64,000 bases of DNA from Candidatus Wildermuthbacteria bacterium (GTDB lineage Bacteria; Patescibacteriota; Minisyncoccia; Minisyncoccales; UBA10102): NCBI GenBank assembly GCA_016203455.1, contig JACQMR010000014.1:6138-70137 (forward strand), written 5' to 3'. A program made the position numbers and the translations under genes. Shown here in pieces: positions 6,602-46,749 of the stretch. A model generated the notes under the pieces. That model saw only the letters and a list, made by a program, of their open reading frames with translations, was not told where the DNA came from and made no database searches. Numbering within the stretch: position 1 is the stretch's first letter; each line of letters opens with the position of its first letter.

Positions 6602-6688
6602 GGAGGCGTGCGAGAGCGGTTGAATCGGACAGTTTCGAAAACTGTTATGGCCGTAAGGCCATCGAAGGTTCGAATCCTTCCGCCTCCG
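6602..6688 (+). tRNA. tRNA-Ser(CGA)
   Basis: GGAGGCG/CGCCTCC acceptor, ACAGT-TTCGAAA-ACTGT anticodon arm, long variable arm. Confidence 0.95.
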
Positions 6689-6689
6689 C

Positions 6690-6953
6690 CTTCGGTCCGC
6701 CGAAGCGGACCTACGGCGTGACGCAGTCCGCCAGTAGGTGTGCGAAGGCGACCTTCGCCACGCTGAAGCGTGGCTACGGCGTGACGCAGTCCGCAGTAGA
6801 TACGCGAAAGCGGGCTTCGGTCCGCCGAAGCGGACCTACGGCCTGGCTACGCCAAATGGCTATGCCATGGCGAGCGTGACAAAGTCCGCCAGTAGGTGTG
6901 CGAAGGCGACCTTCGCCACGCTGAAAACTACACCGCGCTGAAAGCGGCTTCGC
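6690..6953 (+). repeat. tRNA-Ser-associated modular hairpin repeat array (locus A)
   Basis: Units start with CTTCG at 6690, 6753, 6815 and 6911. The modules are shared with 42315-42555, 43365-43408 and 46532-46744. Confidence 0.9.
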
Positions 6954-6965
6954 AATCATAGTATT

Positions 6966-39764: not shown

Positions 39765-41945
39765 TTATTCCATGTGGAGCCGTTCTCTGTAATGTTGCGT
39801 GATTTCTTTGAGCAAGGGATGGCGCGCCAAAGAAATATCGCTGTCCAGAACTGATTTTGCCGCTTCCCTTGCTTTTGCCACAAGCTTAAGATTGGTGAGA
39901 TTTGCCATGGCAAAATCGGGAATCCCCCACTGTTTGGTTCCGGCAAAGTCCCCCGGCCCCCTTAATTGCAGGTCTTTTTCCGCAAGGAGAAATCCGCTGT
40001 TTGACTCAACAAGGGCGCGCAGGCGCGCTTGGGTTTGGGCGGATCTGGACTCTGTAAACAAAAAGCAGTATGACTGATGGTCTGATCTCCCCACCCTTCC
40101 CCTAAACTGGTGGAGTTGAGCCAGCCCAAAACGGTCAGCGCCCTCTATCATCATGACGCTCGCGTTGGGGATATCCACGCCCACTTCAACCACCGAGGTT
40201 GAAACCAGTATGTCTGTTTTTCCGCGCTTGAATTTTTTCATAACTTCTTCTTTCTCTCTCGCGGGCATTTTTCCGTGAAGCATGGCGACGCGCAGTTCCG
40301 GAAACACTTCTTTCGCGAGTTTCTCGTATTCTTCTTTCACTGTTTTTATTTCTGTTACTGGTTGCGTGTTATTTGTGGAGGGTTCTATCCTTGGGCAGAT
40401 TACAAAAACCTGTCGTCCTTTTTCAACTTCTTTTTTCATGAATACATAAGCGGCGCCGCGGTCTTTGGGAGCTATGACTTTGGTTTCTATGGGTTTTCTT
40501 CCTATTGGGAGTTCGTCTATAACCGTGGGGTCTAAATCCCCGTACAGCGTCATGGCGAGAGTTCTGGGTATGGGGGTCGCGGTCATGGAAAGAAAATGAG
40601 GAGTTAAGATAGTTTGCTTGCCCCGAGCTTTGTCGAGGGGTAGTTTGCTTGCCCCGAGCTTTGTCGAGGGGTAGTTTGCTTGCCCCGAGCTTTGTCGAGG
40701 GGTAGTTTGCAGGTGGGCTCTTTGCCTAACTCCAAAGCGGTGCTGTTCATCTACCACCACAAGGGCAAGGTTGGAAAATCGCACTTTGTCTTGTATGAGG
40801 GCGTGCGTGCCAATGAGGATGTCTATGGCCCCTTCTTTTGCTTTTTGGAGGAGTTTGGCGCGCGAGATTTCAATGGAATCGTTTGGGAGTTTGGGAGATA
40901 TGAACAGGTCGGAAGATCCGGTGAGCAGGCCAATGGTCGCCTTGAAAGGAGCAAGAGAGGAGCCAATGGTTTTGAAATGCTGGCGCGCCAAAATTTCAGT
41001 GGGCGCGAGGAACGCGGCCTGAAAGCCGGCTTTCACGCACGCGAGAGCGGCCATGGCCGCCACGACGGTTTTGCCTGATCCCACATCGCCCTGCAATATC
41101 CGGTTCATGGGCCTGGGTTTTTCCATGTCTTTAAGAATGAGCCACGCGGCTTTTTTTTGGCCGTCCGTAAGGGTAAACGGGAGTTTCGCGATAAATCGCT
41201 TCATCATGTCTACGGACAATGGGATGGACGGCGCTTTGATCTCCGCGAGTTTTTTTCGTTCCGTGAGTATGAATAATGAAATATAAAAAAGTTCTTCAAA
41301 TGAAAAGCGTTCTCTCGCGAGATCCGCCTGTTTTTGAGAGTCGGGAAAATGGACTTGCCGCAGAGCGGCGGCAAACGGCAAGAGATTGCATTCTTTTTGA
41401 ACGGATTGAGGCAGAGCGTCCTCCAGAGCATTTCCAATCGCGTTAAGAATTGAGTGGATGATAAATCGGAGCCATTTTGAAGACACTCCCTTTGTCTCCG
41501 CGTACACGGGAGCGATACGCCCTATATGAATGGGGCTGGGGCCTTCTTTTTCATGCGCGGGGTTAGACACAAAAATTCCGGTTTTGTCCCGGAGCACTTT
41601 GCCGCAAAGCAATATTTTTTCGCCGGCCCCGAATGTTTGCGCCAGATACGGCTGATTGAGCCATACGACGCGCGCGCTTCCGGTCGCGTCAGAAAATATC
41701 CCTTCAACCACGGACACCTGCTTTATGAATGTTCTTTTTTCTTGAACATTTGCGATCGTGCCGGAAAGGCAGAATTCCTTGCCCTCCGTAATCTTTGAAA
41801 CGGGGGTAATGACGGACAGGTCCCGGTATGTTTTGGGAAAATGAAACAAGAGATCTCGCGCCGTTAAAATTCCCATGCCTTTCAGCCGTTTTTGATACAC
41901 CGGCCCCACGCGGGGTACTTCAGATAGAGGAGATGAAAGGTTCAT
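39765..41945 (-). CDS. recG: ATP-dependent DNA helicase RecG
   Basis: QGDVGSGKT, DEQHRFG, MTATPIPRT, QFRGRVGR and DLQLRGPG motifs. Confidence 0.96.
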   Translation of the reverse strand: MNLSSPLSEVPRVGPVYQKRLKGMGILTARDLLFHFPKTYRDLSVITPVSKITEGKEFCLSGTIANVQEKRTFIKQVSVVEGIFSDATGSARVVWLNQPYLAQTFGAGEKILLCGKVLRDKTGIFVSNPAHEKEGPSPIHIGRIAPVYAETKGVSSKWLRFIIHSILNAIGNALEDALPQSVQKECNLLPFAAALRQVHFPDSQKQADLARERFSFEELFYISLFILTERKKLAEIKAPSIPLSVDMMKRFIAKLPFTLTDGQKKAAWLILKDMEKPRPMNRILQGDVGSGKTVVAAMAALACVKAGFQAAFLAPTEILARQHFKTIGSSLAPFKATIGLLTGSSDLFISPKLPNDSIEISRAKLLQKAKEGAIDILIGTHALIQDKVRFSNLALVVVDEQHRFGVRQRAHLQTTPRQSSGQANYPSTKLGASKLPLDKARGKQTILTPHFLSMTATPIPRTLAMTLYGDLDPTVIDELPIGRKPIETKVIAPKDRGAAYVFMKKEVEKGRQVFVICPRIEPSTNNTQPVTEIKTVKEEYEKLAKEVFPELRVAMLHGKMPAREKEEVMKKFKRGKTDILVSTSVVEVGVDIPNASVMMIEGADRFGLAQLHQFRGRVGRSDHQSYCFLFTESRSAQTQARLRALVESNSGFLLAEKDLQLRGPGDFAGTKQWGIPDFAMANLTNLKLVAKAREAAKSVLDSDISLARHPLLKEITQHYRERLHME
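40610..40710. repeat. Perfect 31-nt tandem repeat (3 copies + 8 nt) inside recG
   Basis: TAGTTTGCTTGCCCCGAGCTTTGTCGAGGGG at 40610, 40641 and 40672, then TAGTTTGC. Confidence 0.95.
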
Positions 41946-42103: not shown

Positions 42104-42121
42104 GGAGAGGTGGCTGAGAGG
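42104..42121 (+). pseudogene. Duplicated 5' fragment of tRNA-Ser(GCT)
   Basis: GGAGAGGTGGCTGAGAGG is identical to 42227-42244. Confidence 0.7.
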
Positions 42122-42226
42122 GTTGAACGGAAGCGAGCGCCCCGTTCAACGGGAATCAAAAGATTCCCGGGCGGCCTATCAGCACAATTTTTATCCGCTC
42201 TTGTTGCACAAGAGCATTATAGTAAT

Positions 42227-42313
42227 GGAGAGGTGGCTGAGAGGCCGAAAGCGGCACGCTGCTAATGTGTTAGGGGAGAAATCCCCTCGTGGGTTCGAAT
42301 CCCACCCTCTCCG
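42227..42313 (+). tRNA. tRNA-Ser(GCT)
   Basis: GGAGAGG/CCTCTCC acceptor, anticodon GCT, long variable arm. Confidence 0.95.
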
Positions 42314-42314
42314 C

Positions 42315-42555
42315 CTTCGCTCGCCGAAGCGGCGAGCTACGGCGGACGCAGTCCGCCAGTAGATCGTCGCGAAGGCGGGCTTCGGCCTGGCTACGCCAAA
42401 TGGCTATGCCATGGCGAGCGGACGCAGTCCGCTAGAAGCCCCGAACTTTGCGAAGGCGGGCTTCGCCACGCCGAAGCGACGAGCTACGGCCTGGCTACGC
42501 CAAATGGCTATGCCATGGCGAGCGGACGCAGTCCGCCAGTAGATCGTCGCGAAGG
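42315..42555 (+). repeat. tRNA-Ser-associated modular hairpin repeat array (locus B)
   Basis: Units at 42315, 42380 and 42461; ends 17 nt before the GIY-YIG ATG. Confidence 0.9.
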
Positions 42556-42572
42556 AGAGATTCGTAAAAATT

Positions 42573-42809
42573 ATGTACACCGTCTATATTCTGAAATGTG
42601 CCGATGGAAAACCCTACACCGGTTGTACTGAAAATCTTGAAGAAAGATTGGAGCGTCATAATAATGGATATGTACCAGCAACGGAGAATCTACGCCCCAT
42701 AGAACTCGTTACTCATATAGTTTTCAGCGACAAATATAAAGCTTTTGAATTTGAGAAGTATCTAAAATCAGGATCTGGCCGAGCGTTCTTAAGCAGGCAT
42801 TTAATCTGA
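42573..42809 (+). CDS. Small stand-alone GIY-YIG nuclease
   Basis: YTVYIL...YTGCT..LEERLERHN...EKYLKSGSGRAFL. Confidence 0.9.
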   Translation: MYTVYILKCADGKPYTGCTENLEERLERHNNGYVPATENLRPIELVTHIVFSDKYKAFEFEKYLKSGSGRAFLSRHLI

Positions 42810-42850
42810 AAAGTGATAAAATGTAAGAATCTTGAAGGAATCCGAACTAT

Positions 42851-43264: not shown

Positions 43265-43364
43265 CTATGGCAAAATCAAAGACAATCAAAAAGCATCTTG
43301 GTATCTCGCCAGAATGTCTGGTAGGGCCGTCCTATTGGTTCAAAGTTCCGGGCATCGCCACTGC

Positions 43365-43408
43365 CTTCGCCACGCTGAAAACTATGCCCTGCTGAAAGCG
43401 GGCTTCGC
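43365..43408 (+). repeat. Terminal module of the tRNA-Ser repeat element
   Basis: CTTCGCCACGCTGAAAACTATGCCCTGCTGAAAGCGGGCTTCGC, near-identical to 6911-6953 and 46701-46744. Confidence 0.88.
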
Positions 43409-44278: not shown

Positions 44279-44307
44279 GTAAACTTAGTAAAACTAAGTT
44301 TACGCGC
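44279..44307. repeat. 29-bp palindromic repeat, right of the RibD-like gene
   Basis: GTAAACTTAGTAAAACTAAGTTTACGCGC. Confidence 0.8.
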
Positions 44308-44576
44308 CACCCAACCCCACCCGCTCGCCTCGCCTGCCCGCAGAAGTTTCAACGCAGGCGGGGCCCAGCCAGTGGAAAAACTAAATCCGATGTAGTTTTG
44401 CGCTTTGAGCTTGCATTGTATTATAAGAGTGTAATTATGTATAATAAGAGCGCAAGCTCTTCTCTCTTAGAAATTGATTTGCCTTAGTTGCGGATAAGGA
44501 GCATATGTTTTTCTTTTAACCTGTATTTCCAAGCAAGAAACCAATATAGTGTAAGAATTCTGGAAAAGGTTGAGCT

Positions 44577-45170: not shown

Positions 45171-45481
45171 GCAGTAGTTTTCAGCCGCTGGGTAGTGTCG
45201 CTATAATCGGCATGAGCGCGATTATTCCCAATATGAAGCTGAAAACCGCGAATTTTGACAGAGGTCTGTGTGATTGGTTTAGCATATTTTCATTATATCA
45301 TAATATCATATTGTGCTCCCGGCCTTTCTAGAACTTACTTTGCCTAATCTGTTCTGAAAAGTGATAAAATGTAAGAACCCCGAAGGGAACAGAATGCCAT
45401 TTGTGGTGTCCGCCCGTAGTTCTTGACGGGCGCGAAGAAGCGTGAGAGTATATGATTGTAATACAAATAACTACATTCCTT

Positions 45482-46443: not shown

Positions 46444-46530
46444 GGAGGGGTGCCTGAGTGGTTGAAAGGGACAGTCTTGAAAACTGTTAGGGGCGCAAGT
46501 TCCTCGTGAGTTCGAATCTCACCCCCTCCG
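46444..46530 (+). tRNA. tRNA-Ser(TGA)
   Basis: GGAGGGG/CCCCTCC acceptor, ACAGT-CTTGAAA-ACTGT. Confidence 0.95.
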
Positions 46531-46531
46531 C

Positions 46532-46744
46532 CTTTGCTCGCCGAAGCGGCGAGCTACGGCGGACGCAGTCCGCCAGTAGATCGTCGCGAAGGCGGGCTTC
46601 GCCCGCCGAAGCAAAGCTTCGTCGGGCTTCGGCCTGGCTACGCCAAATGGCTATGCCATGGCGAGCGTGACGCAGTCCGCAGTAGATACGCGAAGGCGGG
46701 CTTCGCCATGCTGAAAGCTACGCCCTGCTGAAAGCGGGCTTCGC
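46532..46744 (+). repeat. tRNA-Ser-associated modular hairpin repeat array (locus C)
   Basis: Units at 46532, 46597, 46627 and 46701; the first unit is near-identical to 42315-42379. Confidence 0.9.
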
Positions 46745-46749
46745 CGATC

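Follow-up and report, generated by a model that had tools for sequence, protein, structure and literature searches.

Ssn nucleases and their hairpin repeats form the closest published system to the repeats described here, and the likeness proposed below would be one of working, not of membership. SsnA of Neisseria meningitidis is a protein of 94 aa with a single GIY-YIG domain, which binds its hairpin repeat only as single-stranded DNA (ssDNA) and cuts a few bases upstream (PMC11893778). It also cuts a hairpin assembled from two separate strands (PMC11893778; Chenal et al., 2025). The stand-alone GIY-YIG domains of this system are shorter than 100 aa and lie beside oriented, hairpin-forming NTS/SRM repeats, which number hundreds genome-wide and are also present without the gene (PMC11893778). 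The GIY-YIG gene of phage T4 SegB is found among or behind tRNA genes, and the free-standing GIY-YIG homing endonucleases have a patchy distribution and an inferred spread by cleavage and repair (PMC2330249).

Two further kinds of element resemble parts of the locus. REP/BIME elements form mosaic clusters of structure-conserved palindromes, of which the motif GTAG is typical, and are believed to be recognised as single-stranded hairpins. The attL/attR duplications lie at the 3′-ends of tRNA and tmRNA genes, and tRNA 3′-ends are classic integration sites.

The window analysed here, a stretch of 64,000 nt from a Candidatus Wildermuthbacteria bacterium (contig JACQMR010000014.1, positions 6,138 to 70,137), carries GC-rich arrays of hairpin units directly at the 3′-ends of three tRNA-Ser genes, one of which leads into a gene for a 78-aa GIY-YIG protein. 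As in the Ssn system, a small stand-alone GIY-YIG domain stands beside oriented hairpin repeats that also occur without the gene, and the protein has the single domain and the length below 150 aa that are among the marks of an Ssn nuclease. As with SegB, the gene lies behind a tRNA gene, and as in the free-standing homing endonucleases its distribution is patchy and its GIY-YIG catalytic residues are intact. The units share their mosaic, palindromic make-up with REP/BIME, and their place at tRNA and tmRNA 3′-ends, with duplicated tRNA ends in relatives, with attL/attR. We consider it moderately probable that the units are the hairpin modules of a family of small mobile cassettes built around the ~78-aa nuclease gene. 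This cassette is apparently undescribed: no account of GIY-YIG cassettes that adjoin the ends of tRNA or tmRNA genes in bacteria was found in the literature searched, a scope outside which most subscription journals fall.

Hairpin arrays behind tRNA-Ser genes

The host genome comprises 519 kb in 15 contigs and is 83% complete. It has four tRNA-Ser genes, three of them inside the window. Each of these three ends in ...CTCCGCC, and an array of three to four units opens at the very next base. A unit reads, in order, TTCG, a first hairpin (HP1), CT[A/T]C, a second hairpin (HP2), (A)G[T/A]AG, a few bases and GCGAAGGCG. HP1 has six to seven pairs, a loop of three to four and a variable sequence. HP2 is a conserved hairpin with a loop of three, CT[A/T]CG-GCGGAC-nnn-GTCCGCC, the 5′ arm of which also occurs as GGCG(T)GAC. 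The features are as follows.

6602–6690 (+): tRNA-Ser(cga), called by ARAGORN and the Rfam tRNA model, the last of a tRNA-Arg/Ala/Ser cluster
6691–6953 (+): array A, directly behind tRNA-Ser(cga)
6691–6751 (+): unit A1, with TTCG, HP1 GTCCGC-cgaa-GCGGAC, HP2 CTACGGCGTGAC-gca-GTCCGCC-A-GTAG and closing GCGAAGGCGA; 87.4 bits with covariance model R1 (see below)
6752–6814 (+): unit A2, with HP1 CCACGC-tgaa-GCGTGG; 58.5 bits with the covariance model
6815–6909 (+): unit A3, equal to A1 plus a 33-nt module (6843–6875) within the HP2 5′ arm
6910–6953 (+): terminal module A4, in which CCGC-gctgaaa-GCGG and CTTCGC come after a truncated HP1
42104–42121 (+): second copy of the initial 18 nt of tRNA-Ser(gct), placed 106 nt before the complete gene
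42227–42315 (+): tRNA-Ser(gct), called by ARAGORN
42316–42559 (+): array B, directly behind tRNA-Ser(gct)
42316–42379 (+): unit B1 of array B
42380–42460 (+): unit B2, with the 33-nt module at 42387–42419
42461–42559 (+): unit B3, with the 33-nt module at 42491–42523
42573–42809 (+): 78-aa GIY-YIG nuclease gene (PF01541, E 2.5e-13, residues 1–68, the sole Pfam match)
43364–43408 (+): lone module D, of the terminal type that closes arrays A and C
46444–46532 (+): tRNA-Ser(tga), called by ARAGORN
46533–46745 (+): array C, directly behind tRNA-Ser(tga)
46533–46596 (+): unit C1, 66 nt identical to B1
46597–46626 (+): unit C2, a fragment
46627–46700 (+): unit C3, with the 33-nt module at 46634–46666
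46701–46745 (+): terminal module C4, the end of array C

Tandem Repeats Finder reports array A as 2.5 copies of period 62. Neither BLAST nor the covariance model found any unit in the 519-kb genome outside the three arrays and the lone module, all of which are on one contig (C9), and no unit follows the fourth serine gene, tRNA-Ser(gga), which lies on contig C11. Among all the loci compared, the terminal module is confined to this genome. Module D combines a hairpin with a run of T and looks like a terminator behind the GIY-YIG gene and a 137-aa ORF. The idea of an array of intrinsic terminators was dropped, as the T-run is present in module D only; a CRISPR-like array and a tRNA-like decoy for RNase P were also considered and set aside. 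The 18-nt duplicate of tRNA-Ser(gct) is probably the scar of an earlier event at the same tRNA gene, and two hairpins of another type, GTTGAACGG...CCGTTCAAC and GGGAATC...GATTCCC, follow it (window 42104–42170).

Fold, covariation and mosaic make-up of the units

The unit folds as a three-way junction of a closing stem, HP1 and HP2. In the closing stem, ..CGCC-TTCG pairs with CGAA-GGCG, bringing the GCGAAGGCG stretch back to the start of the unit, so that the tRNA gene contributes its final bases to the 5′ side of the stem. Array A, treated as ssDNA, reaches −81.3 kcal/mol against −58.3 ± 4.0 for shuffled sequences (z −5.75; none of 200 as good), and the three-way junction is the minimum-energy ssDNA fold of units A1 and B1 (z −4.8 and −5.6). 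The terminal module (6906–6955) folds no better than its shuffles (z −0.23). The 33-nt module sits in the HP2 5′ arm, between CT[A/T]CGGC and G(T)GAC, where it folds into a separate branch hairpin (z −4.4) without disturbing the HP2 stems. Its exact copies at 6843, 42387, 42491 and 46634 are those originally listed, and 100 shuffles gave no match. The same module occupies the same place in HP2 on a metagenome contig of a different, AT-rich organism (L114), and it occurs in another context on a second contig (L113).

Covariance model R1, of 68 positions and 25 pairs in a three-way junction, was built from 41 aligned short-form units of the window and its relatives. Realignment to R1 gave 47 matches (E up to 2e-7) from 39 sources, or about 35 genomes. 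In this alignment, which is fitted to the model and consists of mutually related sequences, standard pairs fill 90.8% of cells, compared with 34–44% when the 3′ partners are slid by one to three columns. Changes on both sides affect 11 of the 25 pairs, against 4.8 ± 1.1 in shuffles, and the covariation score is 0.109 against 0.062 in the control; neither value was reached in 500 shuffles. Variation lies mainly in the outer three pairs of HP1 (e.g., column pair 14:56, with CG in 17 units and UA in 14) and in the outer stem of HP2, which is CTAC/GTAG or CTTC/GAAG (pair 60:85, AU 26 and UA 7). The inner HP2 stem is nearly invariant among units that adjoin tRNA-Ser.

A covariance model over all copies had been proposed as the check on the original prediction that selection acts on ssDNA or RNA structure; the two-sided changes of the 47 units exceed those of shuffles, and the prediction holds as far as sequence can tell. 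Its three first hairpins (GTCCGC-cgaa-GCGGAC, CCACGC-tgaa-GCGTGG and CTCGCCG-aag-CGGCGAG) differ in sequence and are all paired, as described. The reading of such differences as compensatory changes stands in part. In its favour are the double changes and a stepwise HP1 series, which runs from CCACGC/GCGTGG (the window and L014) through CCACAC/GCGTGG (L016) to CCACAC/GTGTGG (L018). Within this genome, however, the HP1 variants are discrete module types that are also found in other genera, i.e., ready-made types and not local compensatory mutations. Part of the covariation signal therefore reflects the exchange of modules and not stepwise mutation.

Exact blocks of 16–66 nt occur in different combinations among the arrays. 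The longest, of 66 nt, is common to B1 and C1. A1 and A3 have 28 nt in common at their left, and the A1/A2 and A3/A4 junctions have 43 nt in common, which makes A3 equivalent to A1 plus the module. The 33-nt module is shared, together with differing flanks, by A3, B2, B3 and C3 (38–50 nt). The right half of A2 equals the right half of C3 (30 nt), and module D is a chimera of 21 nt of A4 and 23 nt of C4. Recombination or gene conversion between loci 36–40 kb apart would leave traces of this kind, and the blocks thus agree with the earlier suggestion that modules are shuffled between distant loci.

The GIY-YIG gene and a hairpin that matches the tRNA end

Array B forms the leader of the 78-aa GIY-YIG gene and stops 13 nt short of its start codon. 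The array closes with GCGAAGGAGAG, the Shine-Dalgarno-like sequence of which (GAAGGAG) lies 15 nt ahead of the ATG. The protein is a bare GIY-YIG domain that stops 10 residues past the Pfam boundary and has no separate DNA-binding domain. SegB-type enzymes are much longer and carry DNA-binding domains, whereas this protein is the catalytic domain alone. Its closest solved chains are the UPF0213 proteins 1zg2 and 1ywl, and NCBIfam gave only a sub-threshold match to group I intron endonucleases. Conservation across 78 aligned relatives is 95% or higher at Y5, Y15, R25, H29 and E61, and the family has a conserved C-terminal stretch, KYKAFEFEKYLKSGSGRAF. The catalytic SsnA residues that have been mutated, Y6, Y17 and E64, correspond to Y5, Y15 and E61 (PMC11893778).

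One genome per species was scanned, which yielded 203 relatives of the gene. The best 80 of these are 59–90% identical and come from many Patescibacteria lineages and from Bacteroidota. The Bacteroidota relatives, with identity of up to 74%, include those of Marinifilum (74%) and Niastella, two genera that the Ssn supplements name only in a genome table (PMC11893778). A tRNA gene on the same strand lies less than 300 nt upstream in 56 of the 80 (Ser 47, Pro 6, Trp 3), and in all 56 the units, the tRNA and the nuclease gene are on one strand. There was too little flanking sequence to judge in eight loci. The remaining 16 had no tRNA call; two of them are behind a tmRNA gene, and several others have by eye a tRNA- or tmRNA-like 3′-end. 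The spacers between tRNA and gene start with TTCG and contain HP2.

Among 40 related genomes, units and gene were found together in four, units alone in three, the gene alone in one and neither in 32 (hypergeometric tail ~0.002 by hand arithmetic, for genomes that are not independent), and six of the ten unit matches in these genomes lie directly before the gene. The distribution of the units is patchy (8 of 41 relatives, including this genome); a strict HP2 pattern was matched in 15 of 401 genomes of the order, and its reversed control in none. At orthologous tRNA-Ser genes across families, gene-less units are frequent (L015, L018 and L020). The gene is behind tRNA-Ser(gct) here and behind tRNA-Ser(tga) in a related genome (G002).

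In HP2, the last six to seven bases of the upstream tRNA or tmRNA gene recur as the 3′ arm, and the 5′ arm is their complement. A fixed rule set the CT[A/T]CG hairpin closest upstream of the start codon against the seven bases that precede the TTCG junction; 45 of the 80 loci could be scored. The match was 6/6 bases at 23 loci, 5/6 at 18, 4/6 at one and 2/6 at three, i.e., at least 5/6 at 41 of 45, with a mean of 5.29 compared with 4.68 in shuffles (reached in none of 2000). Of the four missing loci, L051 shows a register shift by one and L099 matches at 4/6, while at L089 and L097 the rule took the wrong junction or hairpin. The match follows the type of RNA gene. All five tRNA-Pro loci have HP2 GTCGGGC...GCCCGAC beside ...CCCCGAC, both tmRNA loci have ...GTCCACC beside ...CTCCACC, and tRNA-Trp loci have GGCAGGC...GCCTGC or GGCG(C)GGC...GCCCGCC. 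The proteins do not sort in the same way: the three Trp-linked proteins are 68–83% identical to Ser-linked proteins and 60–66% to one another, and four of five tmRNA-linked proteins are likewise closer to Ser-linked ones than to each other, so that the target has switched several times with little change in the protein.

The junction TCCGCC/TTCG is also found behind tRNA-Asp, at the 5′-end of an opposite-strand tRNA-Leu at three loci (L022, L028 and L029), where the start of the tRNA, read as its complement, gives ..TCCGCC, and at two sites that have no tRNA (L017 and L026). It thus looks as though the target is the DNA sequence and not tRNA-Ser as such. At L055 and L075, HP2 agrees with the tRNA end in its 3′ arm, with which the 5′ arm does not pair. 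This arrangement suggests that the copy relation would come first and the pairing be restored later, and HP2 as a copy of the target fits these two loci better than HP2 as a guide. In many relatives, the tRNA end recurs as a displaced copy past the gene, and a tRNA 3′ fragment travels with the unit in L043 and L114. At the three loci of the window, no displaced copy of the tRNA-Ser tail of at least 9 nt occurs within 3.5 kb downstream of the tRNA gene, so that none marks an insertion boundary here.

This hairpin sets the units apart from Ssn repeats, as do their number and motif. One hairpin of each unit copies the end of the neighbouring gene, and there are one to four units per locus, at tRNA or tmRNA ends, unlike the hundreds of Ssn repeats genome-wide. 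The word tRNA does not occur in the main text on Ssn (PMC11893778). The published SRM motif has no match in arrays A, B and C or in module D, one elsewhere in the window and five in the 519-kb genome. For the free-standing GIY-YIG homing endonucleases, neither hairpin modules nor a target-copying hairpin are described in the available accounts.

A ~35-nt conserved element, GTGATAAAATGTAAGAA..GAAGG.., lies just upstream of start codons at two places in the window (42813–42847 and 45361–45395). In other Patescibacteria (L003, L033, L034 and L038), it also occurs behind the GIY-YIG stop codon, before different genes. The genome has four more small GIY-YIG genes, of other subfamilies, at tRNA genes (C5:22420–22920, C11:6540–7300 and C14:1–520). 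One is 13 nt behind tRNA-Thr(cgt) and is followed by a foreign tRNA 3′ fragment; two, one of them truncated, flank tRNA-Ser(gga); and one lies between a tRNA-Ala 5′ fragment and the intact tRNA-Ala, after which there are more tRNA 3′ fragments.

A candidate nuclease cassette and its alternatives

Two things were not part of the original prediction, the GIY-YIG gene that follows array B and the agreement of HP2 with the tRNA end, and it is the two together that would explain the repeats. A full cassette would consist of a tRNA 3′-end, at least one unit and the ~78-aa single-domain GIY-YIG gene. Array B would be a complete cassette, and arrays A and C gene-less derivatives reshuffled by recombination, apparently of the kind seen at orthologous tRNA-Ser genes in related genera. 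By analogy with Ssn nucleases, the protein may bind the hairpins on ssDNA and cut nearby. The breaks could drive copying of the cassette into tRNA ends of matching sequence, and unequal repair of the same breaks could account both for the tandem arrangement and for modules passing from one of the three loci to another. The hairpins would then be recognition sites, with their structure conserved for that reason. The patchy spread, the identity to Bacteroidota proteins, the displaced tRNA ends and the different position of the gene in G002 may be read as signs of mobility. If this mechanism is correct, a widespread mobile element, only a few hundred bases long, shapes tRNA loci in the reduced genomes of Patescibacteria and crosses into Bacteroidota. 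Its specificity would apparently lie in a hairpin and not in a protein domain, which bears on selfish DNA and on tools for cutting ssDNA. For annotation, the cassette would explain why GC-rich repeats and pieces of tRNA recur near tRNA genes in these genomes.

A bolder proposal, which we put forward tentatively and think rather unlikely, is that HP2 serves as an exchangeable address label by which the 78-residue nuclease finds or marks its insertion site, its arms being the copy and the complement of the last six to seven bases of the target. A few base changes could then shift the cassette among tRNA-Ser, tRNA-Pro, tRNA-Trp, tRNA-Asp and tmRNA, and the system would be a minimal form of nucleic-acid-templated homing, possibly with a very small programmable ssDNA nuclease. 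Cutting by SsnA of a hairpin made of two strands is the type of mechanism that a target-matching hairpin would suggest (PMC11893778).

The sole serious rival places the action of the units in RNA, as a structured 3′ trailer of tRNA-Ser and 5′ leader of the GIY-YIG mRNA, which might separate tRNA and mRNA, shield the end of the mRNA or tie nuclease translation to tRNA processing; the HP2 arm complementary to the 3′-end would pair alternatively with the tRNA end. We give this explanation a small but real chance. The one-strand layout of the 56 tRNA-linked loci also fits an RNA role, as does the stretch between tRNA-Ser(gct) and the ATG, which has no promoter- or terminator-like site and in which the last unit ends in the Shine-Dalgarno-like motif. 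Gene-less units are kept at orthologous tRNA-Ser genes, where their persistence could mean a host function. Against a trailer or leader, however, stand the units that adjoin the 5′-ends of opposite-strand tRNA-Leu genes and those at sites without a tRNA. In addition, a related palindrome, GCCTTCGCGGGGCCGTAGCCCGCTTCGGCGTGGCGAAGGC, appears by eye in-frame in a thioredoxin-reductase-like coding region (L008 1489–1535, G030). RNA helices usually tolerate G:U, whereas the paired columns contain G:T 33 times and A:C 44 times, a count that is partly affected by the alignment and is a weak sign, giving no specific pointer to RNA. The arrays matched no Rfam family at the gathering score; sub-threshold matches reached 16.6–21.4 bits, and only the tRNAs passed.

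Far less probable is that the units are decaying att-like scars of larger elements once integrated in tRNA-Ser, inactive and with a structure that is inherited and not selected. Their place at a classic integration site, the short copies of the tRNA end inside them and the displaced tRNA ends in relatives would all be in keeping with such an origin. Unlike attL/attR, however, they have no integrase nearby, since both tyrosine recombinase genes (PF00589) are on other contigs (C7 and C3). The cassette is only a few hundred bases long, and the duplicated tRNA end, of 6–7 nt, is half of a hairpin. Decay would not yield pairing that is kept through two-sided changes across families, and the GIY-YIG protein is highly conserved with its catalytic residues intact.

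It is highly improbable that the units are REP/BIME-like palindromes spread by a RAYT (an IS200/IS605-type Y1 transposase) and close to a GIY-YIG gene by chance. They do form mosaic clusters of imperfect palindromes, and GTAG adjoins a hairpin on both strands. A search with PF01797 (Y1_Tnp), which as a control matched in 6 of 14 known genomes, found no Y1 transposase in the 83%-complete genome. Many dispersed copies would be expected, whereas the 519 kb hold only three arrays and a lone module on one contig. Unlike REP/BIME, moreover, the units have a fixed position at tRNA ends and a GIY-YIG nuclease as partner, a link that holds across genomes.

Artefacts of assembly, with the repeats collapsed or chained, can be given very little weight: although short-read DNA contigs from three runs of one study hold the region and stop at the arrays, so that the order and number of units are not independently confirmed, single units and arrays of two to three units stand at the same junction in dozens of independent assemblies, contigs of that study bridge module D in runs X1–X3 and contain the A2/A3 junction in three runs. 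The high contig depth at the arrays reflects many organisms that share the sequence of tRNA and unit.

Depth far above that of the surroundings was also seen in metagenome contigs at an intergenic GC-rich hairpin, GCCTGCCCGC...GCAGGCGGGGC (window 44300–44372), which is probably another repeat common to several organisms. A perfect tandem repeat of 31 nt in 3.3 copies (window 40610–40710) lies within a 726-aa ORF (39765–41945, −) that is RecG-like by eye, and three of the 31-nt copies preserve the reading frame.
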